Assembly (NCBI GenBank): GCA_029775875.1
Contig: JARVKD010000001.1
Location: forward strand, 810-64,809
Source of the DNA: Nitrososphaeria archaeon
GTDB taxonomy: Archaea; Thermoproteota; Nitrososphaeria; Nitrososphaerales; JACAEJ01
Reading direction: 5' to 3'
DNA: 64,000 nucleotides
Made by a program: the position numbers and the translations under genes. The notes beneath the pieces were generated by a model that saw only the letters and a program-made list of their open reading frames with translations, did no database searches and was not told the origin of the DNA. Position 1 is the stretch's first letter. Each line of letters opens with the position of its first letter. This document shows positions 18,916 through 51,310 of the stretch, in pieces.

Positions 18916-18966
18916 CTATTTAAATAGTATTTAAATACTAGTCTATTTTAAATGAGGTGACCTTCC

Positions 18967-19524
18967 TTGCCAATTACAAAAGCTATTGTAAGTATAGAAA
19001 ACGTAGTCGCTTCTGCCACTGTTAATCAAACTATCGATTTAAACACTATTACCAGGCTCTTTCCAGATGTTGAGTATCGCCCAGACCAGTTCCCAGGGCT
19101 TGTATTTAGATTAAAGGCTCCTAAGACCGCCACTCTAATCTTCAGCTCTGGTAAGATGGTATGCACAGGCGCAAAGTCTGAGGATCAAGCCATAAAAGCC
19201 GTCAAGACCGTTGTTAGCAAGTTACGGAAAGGTGGCGTTGAGATACTAAACGACCCAATCATAGAAATACAGAACATAGTCGCCTCGGCAAGTCTTGGCG
19301 GAAAAGTTCATCTTGAGGAAGCAGCTAGGCTGTTGGAGAGATCCATGTATGAGCCTGAACAGTTTCCTGGCTTGATTCATAGAATGATCGATCCTAAGAC
19401 AGTCATACTTTTGTTCGCGAGTGGGAAGCTCGTCTGTACGGGTGCAAGAAAAGAAGCTGACGTCTATAAAGCCGTTAATAATCTCCATGGCTTGCTTGAG
19501 GAAAAAGGGCTTATGCTATATTGA
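18967..19524 (+). CDS. tbp: TATA-box binding protein
   Basis: Two direct repeats, IENVVAS...QFPGLVFRL...LIFSSGKMVCTGAKS and IQNIVAS...QFPGLIHRM...LLFASGKLVCTGARK. TTG start preceded by GAGGTGA. Confidence 0.95.
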   Translation: MPITKAIVSIENVVASATVNQTIDLNTITRLFPDVEYRPDQFPGLVFRLKAPKTATLIFSSGKMVCTGAKSEDQAIKAVKTVVSKLRKGGVEILNDPIIEIQNIVASASLGGKVHLEEAARLLERSMYEPEQFPGLIHRMIDPKTVILLFASGKLVCTGARKEADVYKAVNNLHGLLEEKGLMLY

Positions 19525-27039: not shown

Positions 27040-27104
27040 TGGGAATATCTGGGAGTAAAATATAAAAGTAAGAAAAATCGGCAATTATAATATAGGTGAT
27101 CTAG

Positions 27105-28772
27105 ATGTCTACAACAGCAATTCCGGCAGTTACATCAAGTGGGCAGCCGATACTCATCCTTAAAGAAGGATCTACGCAAACTCGTGGTAGAGACGCTCAA
27201 AGGAACAACATAATGGCGGCTAAGCTGATATCAGAAATAGTAAGGTCTTCCTTAGGGCCAAGGGGCATGGATAAGATGCTCGTAGATACCCTAGGAGACG
27301 TTACTATAACCAACGACGGAGCCACCATATTGAAGGAAATCGATGTTCAGCATCCATCTGCAAAGATGATGGTTGAAATTGCCAAGACCACTGATAATGA
27401 AGTTGGAGACGGAACAACCTCGGCAGTAGTCCTAGCGGGGGCTCTCTTGGAGAGAGCGGAGGAGCTTATCAATAAGGATGTCCATCCAGCGGTCGTAGTA
27501 GATGGCTACAGAAAAGCTGCTGATCAGGCTTTGAAGATTCTTGATAAGATAGCAGTGAAAATCCCTCCTGAGCAAAAGGACTGGTTAATCAAGATAGCTA
27601 AGACTAGCATGGAGACAAAGATGGTTTCTCAAGATAGCGGAATTTTGGCAGAACGTGTAGTCGACGCTCTTCTTCAGGTCGCTGAAAAGTCAGATGGAGC
27701 ATACAAGGTTGACATAGATGATGTTAAGGTAGAGAAAAAGGCAGGTGCATCTTTGGCTGAGACCCAGCTCATAAAAGGCCTAGTATTGGATAAAGAAGTT
27801 GTCCATGCAGGAATGCCTAAGAAAATCAAGAATGCGAAAATAGCCCTTATAAATGCTCCTCTTGAAATAGAAAAGACAGAATTCGATGCCAAGATCAACA
27901 TAAACAACCCTGAGCAGATAAAGCTATTCTTAGAAGAAGAAAACCGTATGCTAAAGACTATGGTGGATAGAATCGCTGAAGTAGGGGCCAATGTTCTCGT
28001 CTGTCAAAAAGGTATTGACGATATAGCTCAGCACTATCTGGCAAAAGCAGGAATAATGGCTGTTAGAAGGGCAAAGCAGAGTGATATGGACAAGCTGGCA
28101 AAGGCTAGCGGAGGCAGGGTTGTAACAAACCTTGAAGATTTATCAGCCAATGATCTGGGATTTGCCGAGACAGTTGAGGAAAGAAAGATAGAAGAAGACA
28201 AATGGGTTTTCATCGAAGGATGCAAGAATCCGAAGGCTGTAACAATATTGATAAGAGGCGGGACTCAGAGGATCGTTGATGAGGCAGAAAGATCTGTGCA
28301 CGATGCCCTTTGCGTAACAAGGGATGTTATGCAAAAACCAGCCATAGTAGCAGGCGGCGGAGCTCCCGAAGCTCATATCGCTCATGAACTAAGAGAATGG
28401 TCTCATACTCTTTCTGGAAGAGAGCAATTAGCCGTTCAAAAATTTGCGGAATCCATGGAAGTAATACCACTCACACTTGCTGAGAATGCAGGGCTCGATC
28501 CTATAGACGCTCAAGTGGAGTTAAGGTCAAAGCATGGCCAAGGCATGGTCTGGGCTGGCATCGGAATCTTTGACGGAGGAATCATAGATACCTATGAAAG
28601 GGGTATCTTCGAGCCATTGGCTGTAAAGGAGCAGATTATAAAGTCAGCCACAGAAGCCGCTTGCATGATACTTAGAATCGATGATGTCATAGCTGCTGGC
28701 AAGATGAGGGAGACGGGAGGAAGGCCAGGCAAGGGCGCAGAAGAAGCGACACCTCCTAGTGGAGAAGACTAA
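27105..28772 (+). CDS. ths: thermosome subunit (group II chaperonin)
   Basis: [50 protein letters not shown] sits 4 nt upstream of the ATG. Confidence 0.95.
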
Positions 28773-41815: not shown

Positions 41816-42295
41816 TTAAATCTCTCTTGCCTTTTGGATCAATTGACTGATCATAAGTTTTAATTTTTCTTCTTTCTCTTTATTAGAGGCAAGAATTAAA
41901 TCAGCAAGCTCAACAAAGATCTTCGCTAAATCTTTTTCTGCAACTTGAGCCATGACACTAATAAATATGAATTGTCTCTTAAGGACTTGATCTGCGACCT
42001 TAATGAATGAGGACAGTATGGCCATGCCTTTGTTCGTAGTTATGTATCTTTTTACATTCGCATCAGGGCTTATTACCTCAGAGATCATTCCCTTCGAAGA
42101 AAGCTCATTCAATATGAAATATATGGAGCCTGGGCTTGGCCTCCATTCATTATTGGTGTAAAGGTTGATCTGGTCTGAAATATCAATGCCACTCACAGGC
42201 ATCTTAGATGCAGCTTTTAGAATGAAGACCTTAAGCATCCCTCTTGGCGCGCTTAAGAATTCAGCCGATTTCAACATACTTAATTTGATCTTCAA
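41816..42295 (-). CDS. PadR-family winged-helix transcriptional regulator
   Basis: TTG start. PVSGIDISDQINLYTNNEWRPSPGSIYFILNELSSKGMI is a PadR-like recognition helix/wing. Divergent from the trp operon. Confidence 0.7.
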   Translation of the reverse strand: MKIKLSMLKSAEFLSAPRGMLKVFILKAASKMPVSGIDISDQINLYTNNEWRPSPGSIYFILNELSSKGMISEVISPDANVKRYITTNKGMAILSSFIKVADQVLKRQFIFISVMAQVAEKDLAKIFVELADLILASNKEKEEKLKLMISQLIQKAREI

Positions 42296-42351
42296 AAGAG
42301 GTTAATAATTCTTACCGAGGCAACTAATGAACATATATGTGCACAAAAGTC

Positions 42352-42359
42352 TTAAATAA
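42352..42359 (+). promoter_or_regulatory. TATA-like box TTAAATAA upstream of the trp operon
   Basis: Lies about 22-29 nt upstream of ATG 42381, which is the spacing expected for a leaderless transcript. Confidence 0.3.
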
Positions 42360-42380
42360 TACATTGATCAAGCGTTGGCG

Positions 42381-42431
42381 ATGGAGGAAGAAAAGTTGGG
42401 TGATTTAGTTTGGTTACGAGCGATACAATAG
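42381..42431 (+). other. 16-codon upstream ORF MEEEKLGDLVWLRAIQ* overlapping the trpE 5' region, out of frame
   Basis: ATG positioned like a leaderless start. A single Trp codon at 42411-42413 follows GGGTGAT-TTA-GTT. Coding status unproven. Confidence 0.3.
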
Positions 42432-43803
42432 TTCATCTAATCTTAAACTAAACCTTAAATCCTTCCCATACATTCCTCCAATTCAAATCTTCAAAAAGAT
42501 TCATAAGAAATTTGATACTGCCTACATACTAGAATCAGTCACAGGTCCAAAGAAATTAGCCCGGTACTCCTTTATAGGATTCGAGCCTAGGCTTATCTTA
42601 AAGGCGAAGGGTAAAGAGTTAGAGATAAAGGATTGTAAAGGAGGATTTTTGGAAAGGAAGAATGTAAAGGACCCATTATACATTATAAAAGAAATGCAAG
42701 GAGGTTCTATTCATGATCAAAGATGGCCAAGGCTGATTGGAGGGGCTGTTGGCTATGTATCCTATGATGCTATTGAATACTGGGAAAGAATCAAATCAGG
42801 TAAGAATGATTTAGGCTTTCCTTATATGGAATTTGGCATCTTTGATGATGGTATAACGTTTGATCATATAAATCATCAAGCCTTTTACTATTTCCAAGAA
42901 GAGGATCGTAGCAAAGAGATAAAATCTGCTCTTAAAGAGCCTGAAAATATTGATGATCTGTATTATTCTCAGCCTAAAGTGAATATAGAATTCAATTCTT
43001 TTTGTGAGAAAGTATCAAAGATAAAAGATTACATATTTTCTGGAGATATATTTCAAGCAGTTTTATCTAAGAGATACGATCTCAAGATAAAAGGTGACCT
43101 TATTCACTTCTATGAGTCTTTAAGGAGAATAAACCCTTCTCCTTACATGTATTTCATGAAGATGAGTGATAGACAGATAGTCGGATCTAGCCCAGAGATG
43201 CTCGTAAGAGTGGATAATGGCATTGTTGAGACATTCCCTATTGCTGGCACAAGACCTAAGCTCGAAGATAAAACTATGAACGATATTGTGCAAAAAGAGC
43301 TTCTTATAGATCCAAAAGAGCGCGCAGAGCATATAATGCTAGTGGATTTAGCAAGAAACGATATAGGAAAGGTCTGTGAGTTTGGTAGTGTCCATGTTCC
43401 AGAGTTTATGAAAGTCCATCAGTATAGCCATGTGCAACATATAGTTTCAAGAGTTTTAGGTAAGTTAAGAGAAGGCAAAGATGCCTTTGATATGTTTAGA
43501 GGAGTATTCCCTGCTGGAACAGTTACTGGAGCCCCTAAGATAAGAGCCATGGAAATAATAGATGAATTGGAACCTTCAAGAAGAGGACCTTACGCAGGAG
43601 CTATAGGATACTTCTCTAACAATGGAAATGCAGATTTTGCCATAACAATAAGAACTTTGGTAGCGAGTAGGGATAAAGCATACATTCAGGTAGGATCAGG
43701 AATAGTCGCTGATTCTGACCCATCAAAAGAATGGCTAGAGACAGAGTACAAAGTAGAGGCTTTGATGAAGGCTTTGAAGGTATCTGGGAGAGGTTTTGAA
43801 TGA
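42409..43803 (+). CDS. trpE: anthranilate synthase component I; N-terminal 80 codons are open in frame but lack a canonical start (first one is TTG 42649)
   Basis: Codons 42409-42648 encode ...FDTAYILESVTGPKKLARYSFIGFEP (TrpE LLES/RYSFIG signature). The downstream core has INPSPYMYF, GSSPEMLVR, IAGTRPK, EHIMLVDLARND, FPAGTVTGAPK, RGPYAGAIGY. Confidence 0.85.
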   Translation, partial: FGYERYNSSSNLKLNLKSFPYIPPIQIFKKIHKKFDTAYILESVTGPKKLARYSFIGFEPRLILKAKGKELEIKDCKGGFLERKNVKDPLYIIKEMQGGSIHDQRWPRLIGGAVGYVSYDAIEYWERIKSGKNDLGFPYMEFGIFDDGITFDHINHQAFYYFQEEDRSKEIKSALKEPENIDDLYYSQPKVNIEFNSFCEKVSKIKDYIFSGDIFQAVLSKRYDLKIKGDLIHFYESLRRINPSPYMYFMKMSDRQIVGSSPEMLVRVDNGIVETFPIAGTRPKLEDKTMNDIVQKELLIDPKERAEHIMLVDLARNDIGKVCEFGSVHVPEFMKVHQYSHVQHIVSRVLGKLREGKDAFDMFRGVFPAGTVTGAPKIRAMEIIDELEPSRRGPYAGAIGYFSNNGNADFAITIRTLVASRDKAYIQVGSGIVADSDPSKEWLETEYKVEALMKALKVSGRGFE

Positions 43804-44387
43804 GGATTCTCATAATAGATAATTATGATTCCTTCGTCTACAATTTAGTTCAATACGTAGGCGAACTAGGAGCTAATCCTTTAGTTTATAGGAACGATCA
43901 GATAAGCCTTGATAATATTGAGAGGATAAAGCCTAATGGCATAATATTATCTCCTGGTCCTGGTACCCCTGAAAATGCAAAGTACTTTGGTATTTGTTCA
44001 TCGATTATAAGGCAAATGGGCTGTAAGATTCCTATATTAGGCATATGCTTAGGACATCAAGGGATAATTCATTCCTTTGGAGGAAAGATAGTTCGTGCAC
44101 ATAACATAATGCATGGCAAGACGAGCATGATAAAGCACGATGGAAACGGAGTATTAAAAGGAATAAAGAATCCCTTTAAAGCTACTCGCTATCATTCACT
44201 CGTTGGCGATAAATTAACACTTCCTTCTTGCCTCAAAGTTACTGCTGAGTCTTTAGATGATGGTGAAATAATGGGAGTAAGGCATATCTCATACCCCATA
44301 GAAGGTTTGCAATTTCATCCTGAATCCATTCTTACAGATAATGGCAAGAAGATAATTGGAAACTTCCTAAAGAGTGGTTCAAAATGA
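43800..44387 (+). CDS. trpG: anthranilate synthase component II (glutamine amidotransferase)
   Basis: ILIIDNYDSFVYNLVQY, GICLGHQ (catalytic Cys), LQFHPES. ATGA overlap with trpE. Confidence 0.9.
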   Translation: MRILIIDNYDSFVYNLVQYVGELGANPLVYRNDQISLDNIERIKPNGIILSPGPGTPENAKYFGICSSIIRQMGCKIPILGICLGHQGIIHSFGGKIVRAHNIMHGKTSMIKHDGNGVLKGIKNPFKATRYHSLVGDKLTLPSCLKVTAESLDDGEIMGVRHISYPIEGLQFHPESILTDNGKKIIGNFLKSGSK

Positions 44388-45445
44388 TAAGGGAAGGGAT
44401 TCAAAAGGTTGTAGATGGTAAGGACCTTAGCCATTTAGAAGCTCGAACCATAATGAAAGAGTTAATGTCAGGCAATGCAACCAATGCTCAGATAGCCTCT
44501 TTTTTGACTGCTTTGAGGATGAAAGGAGAGAGCATCGGGGAGATTTCAGCCTTTGCCAAAGTTATGAGGGATTTCTGCCTTAAAATTCATCCTCGTGTCA
44601 ATAAGCGCATCATAGACATAGTTGGTACAGGTGGAGATAGAATCAAATCCTTCAATGTGAGTACGACGGCATCTTTCATAGTTGCTGGTGCTGGTGCAAT
44701 AGTTGCAAAACATGGCAATCGATCATTCACAAGTAAATGTGGCAGTGCGGATGTTCTTGAGAAATTGGGCTATAACTTGAATACAGAACCTAGCATTATT
44801 GAGAAATCTATTGAGCAAATAGGAATAGGATTCATGTTCGCGCCAAGGTTTCATCCAGCCATGAAGTATGCTTTAGAACCAAGGAAAGAGATAGGGATAA
44901 GAACGATCTTCAACATTCTAGGTCCAATAACTAACCCAGCAAATGCAAGTGGATACCTGTTAGGCGTTTATGAAAAGAAATTAACAAAGATCATGGCTTA
45001 CGTTCTAAAGAATCTCGAAAGCGAAGAGGCTATGGTAGTTCATGGCTTAGATGGGTTGGATGAAATCTCAACTATAGGCAAGACTGAGATGGCATGGTTA
45101 AAAGAAGGCAAGATAAGCGTAACGGAATTATCCCCTAAAGACTTTGGAGTTAGACTGGCAAAGCAAGACGAGATTGAAGGTTCTAATCCAGAAGAAAATG
45201 CCGAAATTGTATTCAGAATTCTAAACGGATTTTACAAGAAAGGAGATCCAAAGATGGATATGACTTTGGTAAATGCAGCCAGCGGGATCGTTGTTGGCGG
45301 GCTTACTGATAAATTCGATAAAGCAATGGAACTGGCTTACGAATCTGTTAAGAGCGGTGCTGCTTATAGCAAGCTCAAGACGATGATAAAATTCTGCGAA
45401 GGAAACATGGAAAAGTTAGAGGAGTTAGAAGTTAAATTTGGTTGA
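44384..45445 (+). CDS. trpD: anthranilate phosphoribosyltransferase
   Basis: DIVGTGGDRIKSFNVST, KHGNRSFTSKCGSADVLE, NILGPITNPA. Confidence 0.9.
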   Translation: MIREGIQKVVDGKDLSHLEARTIMKELMSGNATNAQIASFLTALRMKGESIGEISAFAKVMRDFCLKIHPRVNKRIIDIVGTGGDRIKSFNVSTTASFIVAGAGAIVAKHGNRSFTSKCGSADVLEKLGYNLNTEPSIIEKSIEQIGIGFMFAPRFHPAMKYALEPRKEIGIRTIFNILGPITNPANASGYLLGVYEKKLTKIMAYVLKNLESEEAMVVHGLDGLDEISTIGKTEMAWLKEGKISVTELSPKDFGVRLAKQDEIEGSNPEENAEIVFRILNGFYKKGDPKMDMTLVNAASGIVVGGLTDKFDKAMELAYESVKSGAAYSKLKTMIKFCEGNMEKLEELEVKFG

Positions 45446-46217
45446 TTTTTTAGACTTTATTATTCAAAATGTGAAGAGAACCATTAAAGAAGGGTACTAT
45501 AATGTTCAATTTGATGAGAGAAGGTTACAAAGGAGCTTAAAAGATTCTATTGTAAAATGCAAAAAGATTCCAATCATAGCTGAGATAAAGCCCGCATCTC
45601 CAAAAGATGGTGTATTAAAAAAGGAAATGGATGCAAAAGAGATGGCAATTGCTATCAAAAGAGGGGGGGCAGTAGGAATATCTATACTTACCGAACCAAA
45701 GCACTTCAAAGGTTCTTTAGAGATTTTATCTATAGTGCGAAAAACTGTGGATTTACCTATTCTGATGAAAGACTTCATAATAAGTCCAGTTCAGATAGAA
45801 GCTGCTGATAAAATTGGTGCTGATGCTATTCTTTTGATAAAGTCCATTTTTGACCGTGAATTTGGTGAAAGGAATTTAAACGAAATGATCGAAATCGCGA
45901 AATCAAAAGGTATTGAAGTTTTGCTTGAGGTTCATAATGAGGATGAATTTCTTTCGTCCCTTCAAACGGAAGCTGACATGATAGGTATAAACAATAGAGA
46001 CTTAACAACTTTGAATGTCGATCTTGAGGTCACAAAGAGAATATTGAGTAAGATAGAGAATAGAGGGAGAATAATAGTAAGCGAAAGCGGGATTAACCAT
46101 CCTACTGATGTAAAAGCATTACACAATTTCAACATTAAAGCCTTTCTCATAGGTAAAGCCATTATGACTGCAAGAGACGTTGAAGCCAAGATTCGCGAAT
46201 TCGTGGAGGCTACATAA
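45438..46217 (+). CDS. trpC: indole-3-glycerol phosphate synthase
   Basis: IIAEIKPASPKDG, ISILTEPKHFKGS, LMKDFII, IGINNRDL. TTG start overlaps the trpD stop. Confidence 0.9.
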   Translation: MVDFLDFIIQNVKRTIKEGYYNVQFDERRLQRSLKDSIVKCKKIPIIAEIKPASPKDGVLKKEMDAKEMAIAIKRGGAVGISILTEPKHFKGSLEILSIVRKTVDLPILMKDFIISPVQIEAADKIGADAILLIKSIFDREFGERNLNEMIEIAKSKGIEVLLEVHNEDEFLSSLQTEADMIGINNRDLTTLNVDLEVTKRILSKIENRGRIIVSESGINHPTDVKALHNFNIKAFLIGKAIMTARDVEAKIREFVEAT

Positions 46218-46219
46218 GT

Positions 46220-46867
46220 ATGGTAAGAGTCAAAATATGCGGCATAACCAATGAAAAGGATCTTAAGAATTCAATAATTGCCGGAGCTGATGCTCTCGGC
46301 TTTGTAATAGATGTGAATTCATCGCCAAGAAGTATCAGCATAGATAGAGCTAGAGAATTGATGGAAAAGGTTCCTGTATTTATAAGCAAAGTGGCTGTAA
46401 CTGTTCTTGATGATTTTGATCAAATCATTAAAATAAAGAATAGGTTAAAGCCTGAATACATTCAAATTCATGGGGATTTTGACTTCGATGATGATTACAT
46501 GCTTAAGGCTTTATATGATATGCGCATGATAAGGGCAATAACATTAAAATCAAATCTATCATTGGAATCTGTTTTAAATGAAGCAGAGAATTTTGACGCT
46601 ATTCTCGTTGATTCTTATAAAGAAGGTAAGTATGGAGGAACAGGAATGGTTAACGACTTTAGAATTTGTAGAGAAATCCGAGAAGCGATACGCCCAAAGC
46701 CATTGATATTGGCTGGCGGCTTAAATCCAGATAACGTCGAAGAGGCAATACGCAGAGTCAAACCATTTGCAGTAGATGTTAGCAGCGGGGTTGAATCATC
46801 TCCAGGCATAAAGGACTATGAGAAGATGTCAAATTTTGTAGCTAGTGCTAAGAGGGTTAAGAATTGA
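46220..46867 (+). CDS. trpF: phosphoribosylanthranilate isomerase
   Basis: [35 protein letters not shown]. Confidence 0.85.
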
Positions 46868-48054
46868 AGGAATTTACGAAATATCCAATAGATGGAAAAT
46901 ATGGAAAATATGGTGGGCGATTCATGCCAGAGACTTTGATGAGCGCTGTTCTTGATTTAGAAAAAGCATACTTGAAGCTGAAGAACGACCAAGTTTTCAA
47001 AAAAGAACTTGATTACTATCTATCAGAGTACGCTGGCAGACCTACTTCACTATATTTTGCCAAGAATTTGTCAAAAAAAGTAGGAGGCGCAAAGATCTAT
47101 CTTAAAAGAGAGGATCTATTGCATGGAGGAGCCCATAAGATAAACAACACTCTAGGTCAAGCTCTAATGGCAAAGAAGATGAGAAAGAATAGAGTGATAG
47201 CTGAAACTGGGGCTGGTCAACATGGTGTAGCAACAGCCATGGCATGTGCAGTTCTTGGTTTAAAAGCTGAAATATACATGGGAAAAGAAGATATTGAGCG
47301 CCAAAAGCTTAATGTCTTTCGTATGAATTTATTAGGTGCAGAAGTTCATCCAGTTGGGTCTGGGTCAAAAACACTAAAGGATGCAATAAACGAGGCCCTT
47401 AGAGACTGGGTAGCGAATGTTAAGACAACTTATTATCTCATAGGCTCTGTCGTCGGTCCTCACCCTTATCCTATGATAGTTAGAGACTTTCAAAGCGTGA
47501 TAGGAAAAGAGATCAAATCACAGATAATGGAGAAAGAGAACAGATTGCCAGATGCCTTAATTGCTTGTGTAGGAGGAGGGAGTAATGCCATGGGTACCTT
47601 TTACCCATTCTTAGACGATCATAATGTCAAATTATATGGTGTTGAAGCAGGAGGGCATGGTATAGAATCAGGGGCGCATGCAGCTTCTCTTTGTGCCGGG
47701 GATGAAGGAATCTTACATGGAATGCTTACATATCTTCTTCAAGATGAGCATGGTCAAATCAGTACAACCCACAGCATATCTGCTGGCCTCGATTACCCTG
47801 GCGTTGGACCTGAACACTCATTTCTGAAAACTATGGATAGAGCAAAGTATGTGAGCATGACTGACGATAAAGCTGTCAAGGCTTTTATTGAACTATCTAA
47901 AACTGAGGGTATAATTCCTGCTTTAGAACCTTCTCATTCTTTAGCCTATGCTATAGAATTGGCTGAAAACATGAAAAAAGATGATTTGATAGTTGTGACT
48001 TTATCCGGTCGTGGGGATAAAGATGTGCAAGTTGTAGCAGATTATCTAAAGTGA
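46864..48054 (+). CDS. trpB: tryptophan synthase beta chain (TrpB1 type)
   Basis: [23 protein letters not shown] (PLP lysine), [39 protein letters not shown]. Confidence 0.95.
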
Positions 48055-48058
48055 AGAT

Positions 48059-48877
48059 TTGATGAGCATGAAGGAAACTTTTGAGAGGCTTAAGGATAGG
48101 GGTGAGGGCGCCCTTATCAGCTATATAATGGGAGGAGACCCTAGACCTGATCTCACACCAAAGATAGCTGAAGCGTTAATAGAAGGTGGAGTAGACATAT
48201 TGGAGCTAGGAATCCCCTTTTCAGATCCTATAGCAGATGGTCCAACGATTCAAGCAGCAAACTTAAGAGCTTTGAAATCTGGTACAACTCCTGTAAGAGT
48301 CTTAGAAATAGCCAATCAAATCAAGGGCTATCATAATATACCTGTCGTTATTCTTACTTACTATAACATCATCTTTAGAATAGGTTTAGAGAATTTCTTC
48401 GATAAAGCAAAGAAGAGTAAAGTCGATGGTATAATTGTGCCAGATTTACCAGTGGAAGAAGCTCAAGATTACAAATTTATAGCCAATAAGCATGGCATTG
48501 ATACAATATTTCTTGCCTCTCCTTCCACGAGCATTGTTAGGTTGAAGAAAATTATTGAGTATACTTCAGGCTTTCTCTATATTGTATCTCTCTTTGGTGT
48601 AACTGGTGCTAGAAAGACACTTAAAAGATCAACTATTCGCCTTATAGAAAAAATAATACCTTACATTAAGGGTAAGACACCTCTTGCAGTAGGCTTTGGC
48701 ATTTCTCAACCATATCAAGTCAGGAGCATCATAGAGGCAGGAGCAGATGGGGCTATAGTGGGAAGTGCTTTTGTAGAAATAATTCAGAAAAATGAATATG
48801 ATGAGGATAATATGCTAAACAGCATAAGGAATTATGCAAATGAATTGAAAAAAGCCACCATTTTGGAAGGTGAATAA
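48059..48877 (+). CDS. trpA: tryptophan synthase alpha chain
   Basis: DILELGIPFSDPIADGPTIQ, YYNIIF, GFGISQP, GAIVGSA. ATG 48062 is an alternative start. Confidence 0.9.
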   Translation: MMSMKETFERLKDRGEGALISYIMGGDPRPDLTPKIAEALIEGGVDILELGIPFSDPIADGPTIQAANLRALKSGTTPVRVLEIANQIKGYHNIPVVILTYYNIIFRIGLENFFDKAKKSKVDGIIVPDLPVEEAQDYKFIANKHGIDTIFLASPSTSIVRLKKIIEYTSGFLYIVSLFGVTGARKTLKRSTIRLIEKIIPYIKGKTPLAVGFGISQPYQVRSIIEAGADGAIVGSAFVEIIQKNEYDEDNMLNSIRNYANELKKATILEGE

Positions 48878-49037: not shown

Positions 49038-50252
49038 TTGGAAAAGCCCATAATTGTGGTGAAATTCGGCGGTTCTGTTCTCATGAATGAGGAGAATCTG
49101 AAAAAGGCTGCAGATATGATAAAATCTGAAGTGGAAAAAGGTTCAAGACTCGTGCTAGTTGTCTCAGCGCTTAAGGGTCAAACAGATGAACTCCTCAATT
49201 TAGCCAACAAAGTAGCGCCAGATGTATCTTTATCTTACCTTGATGAGATTTTGGCCATGGGTGAGAAGACCAGCGCTCGCATCATGTCTGCTGCTCTTGC
49301 TTCAAAAGGTCTAAATCCCTACTTAATAGATACAGAATCCCCCCATTGGCCCATAATTACTGATGACAAGCATGGTGATGCTAATCCGTTACTAGATGAA
49401 ACTTCAAGAGCTATAGAAGAAAAACTGATTCCCGTAATAGAATCAGGTAAGATACCTGTAATATGTGGTTTTATTGGCAAGAGCAAAACGGACAAAGTAA
49501 CCACTATGGGAAGGGGAGGGAGCGATACAACCGCTGTACTATTAGGTAGTTGTTTAAATGCAAAGGAGGTTGTCCTTGTTAAAGATGTAGGCAGCATTCT
49601 ATCAGCGGACCCATCGAAAGTTGAGGGTTCAGTCCCAATTGATATACTAGATCCAGAGGAAGCCTATATCCTAACTGCAGGAGGGGCGAAGATTCTTCAA
49701 GCCAAGGCTCTCAGGTACAAAAAGGATGATTTGATAATAAGAGTAATTAGCCTTGAAAATAAGAATCTCACATCAGGCGGGACTTTGATCGGCAAAGGCT
49801 CTCTTGGATACGAGATTGAGTGTTATGATAAACCTGTTACAATGGTTACTATAGTAGGTGCTGAGGCGTCGAATCCTCAATCATTGGCTTTGTTGGCATA
49901 TGAGGTTCAAAGATCTGGGGGCGACATAGTATCTATTACTTCTGATGAAAAATCCTCGATTCTTTACATATCAAATGGTAGAAAACTCCTTAACAACTTG
50001 CACAAATTGATGGTGGAGAAGAGGATAGGAAAGGCAGTAAGCTCCTTTGAGGACTTGTCCATGGTGTCGATTAAGGGGAGGCAGTTGGAGACCAACCCAG
50101 GAATAATACAAAGATTCATAACACCTCTGGCTGATCAAGGCATAAACATTTACGGTCTAGTCACCATAAGCTCTTCTATCAAAATCTTTATTTCAAATAA
50201 AGAAATAGAAAAAGTTCTTACCTTGCTTAGAAGGGCATTGAAGGGTGAATGA
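49038..50252 (+). CDS. aspartate kinase with C-terminal ACT domains
   Basis: TTG start. IIVVKFGGSVL, MGRGGSDTTAVLLG, VKDVGSILSADP, two ACT-like repeats. Confidence 0.9.
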   Translation: MEKPIIVVKFGGSVLMNEENLKKAADMIKSEVEKGSRLVLVVSALKGQTDELLNLANKVAPDVSLSYLDEILAMGEKTSARIMSAALASKGLNPYLIDTESPHWPIITDDKHGDANPLLDETSRAIEEKLIPVIESGKIPVICGFIGKSKTDKVTTMGRGGSDTTAVLLGSCLNAKEVVLVKDVGSILSADPSKVEGSVPIDILDPEEAYILTAGGAKILQAKALRYKKDDLIIRVISLENKNLTSGGTLIGKGSLGYEIECYDKPVTMVTIVGAEASNPQSLALLAYEVQRSGGDIVSITSDEKSSILYISNGRKLLNNLHKLMVEKRIGKAVSSFEDLSMVSIKGRQLETNPGIIQRFITPLADQGINIYGLVTISSSIKIFISNKEIEKVLTLLRRALKGE

Positions 50253-51310
50253 ACATGAAAAGAATCAAGACCGCAATTCTTGGAGCAACTGGGATGATAG
50301 GACAGAATTACCTATACCTTCTCTTAAACCATCCTTGGTTTGAAGTTACGACTCTAACAGGGGGAGAATCTGCTGGCAAAAAGTATGGTTCTACAGGCAA
50401 ATGGTTAATGTCTCCAGATATGCCTGAGCAGTATAAAGACGTAATCGTCAAGTCTACAGAACCAAAAGAAGTTGATGCAGATCTGATCTTTTCAGCTTTA
50501 CCGACTTCTGCAGCAAAAACAGTAGAGCCAAAGTTTGCTGAGGCAGGCTTTCACATAATAAGTGATTCCAGCGCTTTCCGTTTATATGATGATGTGCCAG
50601 TGGTCATACCTGAAGTGAACCCCGATCATTTAAGCCTATTAGACGTTCAAAGACGTAAGAGGAAATGGAACGGTTTCATCGTTTCAAATCCAAACTGTAC
50701 TGCTCTAGGCCTGACTATAGCCTTAAAGCCTATACATGATTTGTTAACGATAAAGAAGATGGTAGTTACAACTATGCAGGCTTTATCAGGAGCAGGCATC
50801 CCAGGGGTTCCCTCTCTCTTAATAACCGATAACGTCATACCTTTCATAGCTGAAGAAGAGGAGAAGGTTCAATTGGAACCATGTAAGATACTAGGTAACA
50901 TAGAAGGAGATAGAATAAAGCCAGCAGATATAAAAGTTGAAGTGTCTTGTAACAGAGTTCCAACGATAGACGGGCACTTAGAATCAGTGTATATTGAGAC
51001 TAAGGAAAGAGTTGATGTGGATATAGTAAAAGATGCCCTAAGGTCTTTTAAAGGAAAACCTCAAGAGTTCAAACTTCCAATGGCTCCAACTCAGCCCATA
51101 ATAGTTAGAGAAGAAGAAGATAGGCCTCAACCTCGCCTTGATAGGCTTGCAGGTTCTGTACCAGGAATGAGTGTAACTGTTGGCAGAGTTCGCCGTGGAT
51201 CAGACGCGAACTCTCTTTGGTTGCATGTCCTTAGCCACAATACAATAAGGGGTGGCTCAGGCTCATCTATACTTTTAGGAGAATTGATAGTAGCTTTGAA
51301 GATGATCTAG
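50249..51310 (+). CDS. asd: aspartate-semialdehyde dehydrogenase
   Basis: AILGATGMIGQ, VSNPNCTA (active-site Cys), SHNTIRGGSG. ATGA overlap with aspartate kinase. Confidence 0.9.
   Translation: MNMKRIKTAILGATGMIGQNYLYLLLNHPWFEVTTLTGGESAGKKYGSTGKWLMSPDMPEQYKDVIVKSTEPKEVDADLIFSALPTSAAKTVEPKFAEAGFHIISDSSAFRLYDDVPVVIPEVNPDHLSLLDVQRRKRKWNGFIVSNPNCTALGLTIALKPIHDLLTIKKMVVTTMQALSGAGIPGVPSLLITDNVIPFIAEEEEKVQLEPCKILGNIEGDRIKPADIKVEVSCNRVPTIDGHLESVYIETKERVDVDIVKDALRSFKGKPQEFKLPMAPTQPIIVREEEDRPQPRLDRLAGSVPGMSVTVGRVRRGSDANSLWLHVLSHNTIRGGSGSSILLGELIVALKMI

Follow-up and report, generated by a model that had tools for sequence, protein, structure and literature searches.

A 64,000-nucleotide (nt) stretch of a Nitrososphaeria archaeon (contig JARVKD010000001.1, positions 810 to 64,809 of the forward strand; hereafter the window) contains a complete trpE-G-D-C-F-B-A operon, in which all seven trp genes are intact. 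The analysis concerns the 5′ end of trpE and how its translation begins. Across 42351-42651 the trpE frame is translated as ...SWVI, a stop and FGYERYNSSSNLKLNLKSFPYIPPIQIFKKIHKKFDTAYILESVTGPKK...; the stop is TAG 42406-08, and the frame is open from 42409. The 80 trpE codons that follow this TAG include no ATG, GTG or TTG, and the first canonical start is TTG 42649, which the mechanical list of open reading frames (ORFs) uses for trpE. Since these three codons make up 5.7% of the remaining trpE codons, the probability of a start-free run of 80 codons is ~0.009.

TTG 42649 corresponds to residue 81 of the ORF that follows the TAG. The Pfam domain Anth_synt_I_N spans residues 23-159 of this ORF, and residue 10 of the Saccharolobus solfataricus TrpE, whose structure has been solved (1QDL), is aligned to its residue 21. 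Because both the domain and the alignment begin earlier, a start at TTG 42649 would cost ~65 N-terminal residues from a conserved region of the fold. Conservation extends along the whole of TrpE (E = 7e-100 against 1QDL; full-length domain matches). Two ORFs in the other frames begin close by: that of ATG 42381 reads MEEEKLGDLVWLRAIQ and stops at 42429-31, and that of TTG 42410, in the third frame, reads (M)VTSDTIVHLILN and ends at TAA 42449-51. The first-pass annotation of this DNA had described the TAG, the lack of a canonical start before TTG 42649 and these two ORFs, and all were confirmed.

To place the locus in an evolutionary context, one genome per species was scanned, yielding 79 loci, of which 69 species-level loci carry the site described below. 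A set of 95 distinct sequences was compiled, comprising 26 from ammonia-oxidising Nitrososphaera (AOA), the window clade and 62 Bathyarchaeia. The clade of the window is represented by five independent assemblies labelled Nitrososphaerales or Nitrososphaeria (L001-L005), with TrpE identities to the window of 77-94%, and by L116, found in a metagenome scan and not scored for identity. All six keep the TAG directly before TTT-GGN and lack an in-frame start, and the sequence TTG/ATG-GGT-GAY-YTA-GTT-TGG is kept in the window and in all six. The features of the window, in which 0 frame denotes the frame of the conserved short ORF, are as follows.

42337..42364, + strand: promoter, with the TATA box CTTAAATA at 42351-58 and operator-like half-sites ATGTGC (42337-42) and ATACAT (42359-64).
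42383..42387, + strand: Shine-Dalgarno (SD) sequence GGAGG, 8 nt 5′ of the conserved start codon.
42396..42398, + strand: conserved 0-frame start codon TTG (ATG in L004, L116 and 63/69 loci; GTG in L164).
42396..42431, + strand: short 0-frame ORF, (M)GDLVWLRAIQ and a stop, the would-be product without a shift.
42399..42404, + strand: SD-like hexamer GGTGAT, consensus RGKRAT, at -12 to -7 from UGG.
42405..42407, + strand: 3-nt spacer TTA, overlapped by the trpE-frame stop TAG 42406-08.
42408..42413, + strand: proposed shift site GUU-UGG, with NUU as the P-site and the Trp codon as the A-site codon; the next codon after a +1 shift would be GGT 42412-14.
42412..43803, + strand: main part of trpE, read in the +1 frame; the product predicted for the frameshift has 468 amino acids, MGDLV/GYERYNSSSNLK... 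(here and below a slash marks the frame junction).
43800..48877, + strand: trpG-D-C-F-B-A, several junctions overlapping or abutting, with ATGA at trpE/trpG and at trpG/trpD.

The arrangement could in principle be an artefact. The first-pass annotation had favoured an indel of 1 nt, due to a sequencing error or to recent mutation, and one extra base would indeed restore a single ORF from TTG 42410 or from TTG 42396. This explanation was refuted by the comparison: the TAG, the missing start and the out-of-frame start recur in six independent assemblies of the clade, and the module is found in more than 60 further species and in ~95 sequences overall. A trpE pseudogene in a tryptophan auxotroph, which had been named as another way out, is not supported either, with seven intact trp genes and a TrpE conserved from end to end. 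We regard error, recent indel and pseudogene together as extremely improbable. The alignment of related trpE 5′ regions, proposed earlier as a check, came out the other way: the GUU-UGG/SD context is conserved, and an ordinary in-frame start is absent in the window clade.

The module has the same order throughout: a TATA box, an SD sequence, an out-of-frame start ~37 nt downstream of the TATA box, RGKRAT, three variable bases, NTT, TGG and usually C. The start is followed by four codons and NTT-TGG in 68/69 loci (six codons in L054), and C comes next in 61/69. The hexamer directly follows the start, but lies two codons later in the AOA. In a gapless alignment of the 95 distinct sequences anchored on TGG, the TT, the TGG and the G at -11 are invariant (95/95); the frequency of A at -8 is 90%, that of T at -7 is 95% and that of C at +3 is 79%. 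The hexamer occupies -12 to -7 in 95/95. The P-site codon is always NUU (CTT in 39, GTT in 18, ATT in 7 and TTT in 5 of the 69 species-level loci). Within the 64 kb of the window, RGKRAT-N4-TTTGG has a single occurrence, at the trpE site; bare GGTGAT is not enriched there (20 found, 22 expected). The peptide encoded in the 0 frame has a single W in nearly all loci and two in the N. gargensis subclade, its stop falls 2-19 codons past W in the relatives, and the sequence past W is unconserved.

The Phe codon of the trpE frame at the site is always TTT and never TTC, whereas elsewhere in trpE only 42-59% of Phe codons are TTT; in the AOA the count is 30/30, with a nominal P of ~6e-8 that is uncorrected for relatedness. 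An invariant T run is also what might be expected if the frame were corrected at the RNA level, with polymerase slippage or editing dropping one U from UUU, and the removal of one T from NTTTGG gives exactly the predicted protein. However, the run is only three T long in the window and in most Bathyarchaeia, and known slippage requires far longer homopolymers (PMC5009743; PMC3711429 for poly-A runs). Slippage also needs neither an invariant UGG, nor a hexamer at a fixed distance, nor a start exactly four codons upstream. We consider correction at the RNA level very unlikely.

Substitution patterns locate the change of frame. Between the start and the site, all substitutions within the window clade (GGT/GGG, GAT/GAC, TTA/CTA) are synonymous in the 0 frame, where MGDLVW is invariant, and three of the four upstream substitutions would alter the amino acid in the trpE frame. 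The pattern reverses directly after TTT: the changes GGT/GGC, TAC/TAT and GAG/GAA, together with an indel of 3 nt, are consistent with the trpE frame. L003 and L004 have TAG at codon -1 of the trpE frame and, in the 0 frame, TGA two codons past TGG; thus, the switch must take place within GTT-TGG-CTA. As the passage from NTT in the 0 frame to GGN in the trpE frame skips one base, the shift is +1. The junction predicted in the first-pass annotation, GDLV/GYERYN, stands. An apparent G-I conservation upstream of the site in the trpE frame was considered and rejected as a coding signal: it is the nucleotide hexamer RGKRAT read in another frame.

Several loci have the two parts joined in a single frame. 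In L030 (Ca. Bathycorpusculum, a Joint Genome Institute metagenome assembly; ~2955-2975), ATG AGG AAC CAC CTT GAC AAC CAA encodes MRNHL-D-NQTTK without a change of frame, and the predicted +1 product of its relative L022 is MRNSL/G-NQTTK. L161 (a metagenome-assembled genome, GCA_027492105; 401-420) reads ATT TGG GCT CGA in one frame from the same ATG, and in L014 (2914-2935), which has CTT TGC, the 0-frame start is fused to TrpE. In these three loci small indels lie exactly at the shift site, and the fusion lengths fit a +1 and not a -2 product; in L162 (401-450) the fusion is made by a 2-nt insertion further downstream. L030 and L161 look like genuine evolutionary losses of the frameshift. 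Such in-frame variants show that the short 0-frame N-terminus and TrpE form one protein. Taken by itself, the change of frame is well supported by these comparisons.

The trpE frame was also searched for starts that would make a change of frame unnecessary. In the 36-44 codons that lead from the upstream stop to the conserved LES motif, no ATG, GTG or TTG is present in the trpE frame in 6/6 members of the window clade and in 33/62 Bathyarchaeia; in total, 39/68 species lack a canonical in-frame start. In six further Bathyarchaeia such a start is found only downstream of the site, and many Bathyarchaeia have an ATGA at the 0-frame start codon, the TGA of which ends the trpE frame. Among near-cognate starts, no position is conserved across the window clade: CTA, CTG or TTA are found at one site, and ATT, ATA, GCC or ACA at another.

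These data bear on the idea that the short ORF is a separate leader peptide with a Trp codon, and that TrpE is started past TAG 42406-08 at a non-canonical or near-cognate codon or by re-initiation. A short ORF with a Trp codon before trpE recalls the bacterial trpL, the Prokaryotic Genome Annotation Pipeline (PGAP) gives CTG or ATT starts in relatives, and in-frame starts adjoin the site in the AOA and in some Bathyarchaeia. Yet the near-cognate codon is not conserved in position in the window clade, and the variable 0-frame stop has no start nearby. Moreover, the in-frame starts next to the site would be hidden under a ribosome stalled at UGG, so a leader peptide would lower TrpE when tryptophan is scarce, which is the wrong direction. 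The invariant NUU/TTT, the fusions in L030 and L161 and the coding signature that sets in at TTT-GGN would also be left unexplained. We judge this model unlikely.

Initiation in the trpE frame upstream of the stop would require read-through. GTG 42400 is in the trpE frame (GTG ATT TAG TTT GGT), the homologous GTG is the annotated AOA start, and the frame is open in L056 and L165; TAG 42406-08 would be read by suppression or as pyrrolysine. In L003, however, GGG replaces the GTG, and a second in-frame TAG lies upstream with no start between the two TAGs. The Bathyarchaeia have GGA or GGG at the GTG position, and in the window GGAGG lies 12 nt from the GTG. Initiation at GTG 42400 with read-through is thus scarcely credible.

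Public trpE calls (P0001-P0120) are in conflict. PGAP places CTG or ATT starts at differing positions, and other calls are truncated to 375-403 amino acids, begin with ATG/GTG at codon -1 or use an upstream ATG that probably precedes the transcription start. The last of these, an upstream in-frame ATG in some Bathyarchaeia calls (MVQNLRS...WGIAFG), was rejected as a start: it lies in the conserved GTATGCTTCTGAAC block, ~9 nt before the predicted start of transcription, and its frame relative to trpE differs between clades. L054 and L056 had been taken for loci dependent on a frameshift and were withdrawn, as both have an in-frame GTG. If the proposal below is right, trpE is systematically mis-annotated in hundreds of public genomes, and a simple motif could correct gene callers.

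Altogether, we propose that synthesis of TrpE depends on a programmed +1 ribosomal frameshift at GUU-UGG that is stimulated by scarcity of charged tRNA-Trp and thus probably senses tryptophan, a reading to which we assign a probability of roughly 0.7 on the basis of comparative sequence evidence. A sensor of tryptophan is the simplest reading because the presumed slow codon is invariably a Trp codon at the head of a Trp operon. We infer that the change of frame is made by the ribosome, with an efficiency governed by the level of Trp-tRNA, and that the anti-SD sequence mediates the effect of the hexamer. The process would comprise the following steps. Ribosomes would bind GGAGG, initiate at TTG 42396 and translate M-G-D-L-V in the 0 frame, and would then have tRNA-Val in the P site, on GUU 42408-10, as UGG 42411-13 reaches the A site. 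In case charged tRNA-Trp is plentiful, UGG would be decoded and translation would end at the stop TAG 42429-31, leaving an 11-residue peptide and no TrpE. In case charged tRNA-Trp is scarce, the A site would stay empty and the P-site tRNA could re-pair on UUU, whereupon GGU would be read next and the 468-residue TrpE (MGDLV/GYERYN...) would be made. Coupling would then drive translation of trpGDCFBA too: since junctions such as trpE/trpG overlap or abut, the trp genes are probably translationally coupled, as had been suggested earlier. The hexamer GGUGAU, 3 nt 5′ of the P-site codon, would pair with the 3′ end of 16S ribosomal RNA (rRNA) and favour the forward slip. More speculatively, a ribosome pausing so close to the start, at a constant distance, may block its own ribosome-binding site. 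The first-pass annotation had raised, as a speculative alternative, a Trp-responsive +1 slip at GUU-UGG with GGGUGAU three bases upstream; the comparison favours the slip and its context, and the response to tryptophan is the part that we infer.

The frameshift may also be real and constitutive, setting TrpE yield at a fixed efficiency with no response to tryptophan. Ty1-like heptamers shift efficiently without a signal (PMC5009743), and free-living prototrophs need TrpE constantly. Against this, the A-site codon is UGG in 95/95 sequences at the head of a Trp operon, and a device of fixed rate could use any slow codon. A constitutive shift seems unlikely to us. None of the rival explanations considered here accounts for the full set of conserved features.

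A number of observations weigh against the tryptophan-sensing frameshift, or limit its reach. First, in-frame ATG or GTG codons lie at -1 to -3 or further upstream in L056, L165 and 23 Bathyarchaeia, and all AOA but L105, including Ca. Nitrososphaera gargensis Ga9.2, carry an in-frame GTG inside the hexamer (RGTGRT). A normal start is possible in all of these, which weakens the claim that the module always directs frameshifting; even these retain an out-of-frame ATG led by an SD sequence, together with NUU-UGG and the TTT that never varies. Second, the 95 sequences are mutually related, and hence the counts are not independent. Third, among the fusions, L014 may be a long-read homopolymer error and L162, with its long-read-style contig name, an assembly error. 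Fourth, the slip of GUU onto UUU retains two of three base pairs, and only a UUU P-site codon retains all three; for CUU, a G:U pair is possible at the first position, as in prfB and Ty1. Fifth, the match between hexamer and anti-SD is imperfect in most Bathyarchaeia (GGGAAT, AGGGAT). Finally, we know of no SD-stimulated frameshift on archaeal ribosomes.

On balance, we lean slightly towards a single ancient translational switch common to Bathyarchaeia and Nitrososphaeria, with a +1 slip at a single Trp codon, 5-7 codons into the ORF, aided by a hexamer that pairs with rRNA. The switch would probably operate in ammonia oxidisers such as Ca. Nitrososphaera gargensis too. In the cultured Ca. N. 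gargensis Ga9.2 (L080/L082; L080 1485-1560), the annotated trpE GTG start sits within the SD-like hexamer, and 10 bases upstream of it an SD-led ATG opens MSKGGYFWSACWQLDPDTQTSYV, ending at a stop, with two Trp codons, the first at UUU-UGG. The annotated N-terminus of this TrpE may be wrong: the N-terminal peptide would be GGYFGQLAGSSIQIHK if it is a frameshift product versus VTFGQLAGSSIQIHK if translation begins at the annotated GTG. One locus labelled Lokiarchaeia (L164, GCA_041862095) has a trp promoter of the Bathyarchaeia type, the full motif, a GTG 0-frame start and a TrpE 60% identical to that of the window, the result either of mis-binning of the contig or of transfer of the operon. 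A link to Nitrosopumilus through L056 was sought and failed, the nearest relatives of L056 being Bathyarchaeia-like.

In relatives the 0-frame start is preceded by GGAG, GGGG or GAGG. Two other starts had been put forward in the first-pass annotation, and neither survived. ATG 42381 is not conserved: L003 has ATA instead, the ATG of L005 is in another frame, and that of L116 is followed at once by TGA; the conserved start is TTG 42396. TTG 42410 is a by-product of the invariant UUUGG, and it opens a frame of 13 codons from which no conserved -1 slippery site leads back to trpE. GGTGAT does lie at 42399-404, 5 nt before TTG 42410, as had been noted. The same motif had been reported before two other genes, which is correct for the thermosome start (27077-27113 region), with AGGTGATC and 3 nt upstream, and incorrect for the tbp TTG (18939-18975 region), with GAGGTGAC and 5 nt upstream. 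Judging from these two genes (AGGTGATC, GAGGTGAC), GGTGAT-like sequences serve as SD elements in the genome of the window.

Upstream, the block of TATA box and half-sites is invariant in the alignment of the window clade. The half-sites form an inverted repeat around the TATA box, ATGTAC-N16-GTACAT in L001-L005 and L116, with ATGTGC and ATACAT in the window. In Bathyarchaeia, GTACATTTTTGTAC lies just 5′ of AAGCCTTAAATA, with ACAT downstream, ~70-110 nt upstream of the shift site. Transcription would start near 42381, judging by the distance from the TATA box that is usual in archaea. Repression by TrpY in Methanothermobacter acts through TRP boxes that overlap the trpE promoter, to which the trpY gene is adjacent; a consensus has been described for these boxes. 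The inverted repeat looks like a repressor operator over the trpE promoter, recalling those TrpY-bound boxes, and would add a layer of transcriptional control. A divergent gene for a PadR-family regulator (41816-42295, - strand) faces the trpE promoter; it is found in the same place in L001, L002 and L116 and not in L003-L005. Its product is a candidate operator-binding protein.

Signals of attenuation at the RNA level were looked for in the leader. No Rfam family matches at the trpE leader, and no terminator-like site was found in 42200-42700. Nor was a conserved RNA structure or riboswitch detected: the 95 loci have an average folding z of -0.33, only 2% of them fall below -2, and the RNAalifold result for the clade is weak. 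The leader of the window (42382-42480) folds well by itself (-26.9 kcal/mol, z = -3.2), GGAGGAA 42383-89 pairing with UUCCUCC 42472-78, and the hexamer and shift site with 42446-61; this fold is not shared by relatives or by the other 94 loci. Downstream of trpA and on the same strand, genes for an aspartate kinase with ACT domains and an aspartate-semialdehyde dehydrogenase, which overlap each other, occupy 49038-51310.

Full-text literature searches found no earlier description of a trpE frameshift or of any frameshift that senses tryptophan, in agreement with the first-pass annotation, which had known of no archaeal precedent. The GeneTack survey contains no anthranilate synthase cluster. 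In a 2016 review, Atkins and colleagues do not list trpE; according to them, hungry-codon frameshifting could yield trans-frame proteins specific to starvation, but no natural case in which starvation drives the synthesis of a functional one is known (PMC5009743). In archaea, the -1 frameshift of fucA1 is the only programmed one demonstrated in a cellular gene, with no +1 case, and a 2021 review of archaeal recoding makes no mention of tryptophan (PMC8211752). The proposal bears on how the trp operon is regulated in TACK-type archaea, mostly without TrpY and Tar; work in T. kodakarensis, in which Crenarchaeota are noted mostly to lack both, raised a third mechanism as a possibility (PMC6737238). 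If true, this would be the first natural amino-acid-starvation (hungry-codon) frameshifting that governs the operon for synthesis of the same amino acid. It would also be the first +1 programmed frameshift in a cellular gene of Archaea, and would give evidence of an action of the archaeal anti-SD on ribosomes during elongation.

The closest known system is the +1 site of Escherichia coli prfB, AGGGGG-UAU-CUU-UGA-C, at which the shift takes place 25 codons from the start. The trpE element resembles it in having a short 0-frame ORF, an SD-like hexamer at -12 to -7, a 3-nt spacer, an NUU codon able to re-pair on UUU, a presumably slow A-site codon and then usually C; in both, the main protein lies in the +1 frame, and the proposed feedback acts on the output of the pathway itself. 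The A-site codon, however, is the sense codon UGG in trpE, whereas in prfB it is the stop UGA, read by the gene's own product RF2. As the A-site codon is a sense codon and not a stop, the sensed molecule would be charged tRNA-Trp instead of a release factor. The trpE element also differs in encoding a biosynthetic enzyme, in being archaeal and in lying five codons from the start instead of 25. By analogy, then, it would work like prfB without being a member of the prfB group.

In yeast Ty1, the heptamer CUU-AGG-C alone gives ~40% +1 frameshifting (PMC5009743). The trpE sequence CUU-UGG-C, present in 39/69 loci, is one base away from that of Ty1 and ABP140. In Ty1, slow decoding of a sense codon makes the Leu tRNA in the P site slip onto UUx (PMC5009743), and the same would hold for trpE; GGC is the codon that follows in the A site after either shift. 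An SD-like stimulator upstream is absent from Ty1, and the window itself has GUU-UGG-U. The tRNA of Ty1 is permanently scarce and its efficiency is therefore fixed, whereas scarcity at trpE would follow the tryptophan supply. In the ribosome-mediated attenuation of bacterial trp operons (trpL), too, pausing at Trp codons in a short ORF before trpE reports charged tRNA-Trp; there the output is a choice between terminator and antiterminator, and here it would be a change of frame, with the leader fused to TrpE. Antizyme likewise uses +1 frameshifting as both sensor and effector of metabolic feedback, that of polyamines, but the antizyme system is eukaryotic: it shifts on a stop codon, with polyamines and a 3′ pseudoknot as stimulators, and yields a product that represses its pathway and does not catalyse it. 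The fucA1 gene of S. solfataricus is, like trpE, a cellular archaeal gene that requires a frameshift; it shifts -1 on A-AAA-AAT with a stem-loop, in one species and with no known regulatory logic. Set beside these systems, the trpE site would represent programmed +1 frameshifting with a new sensed signal, in a new domain of life and with a wide distribution.

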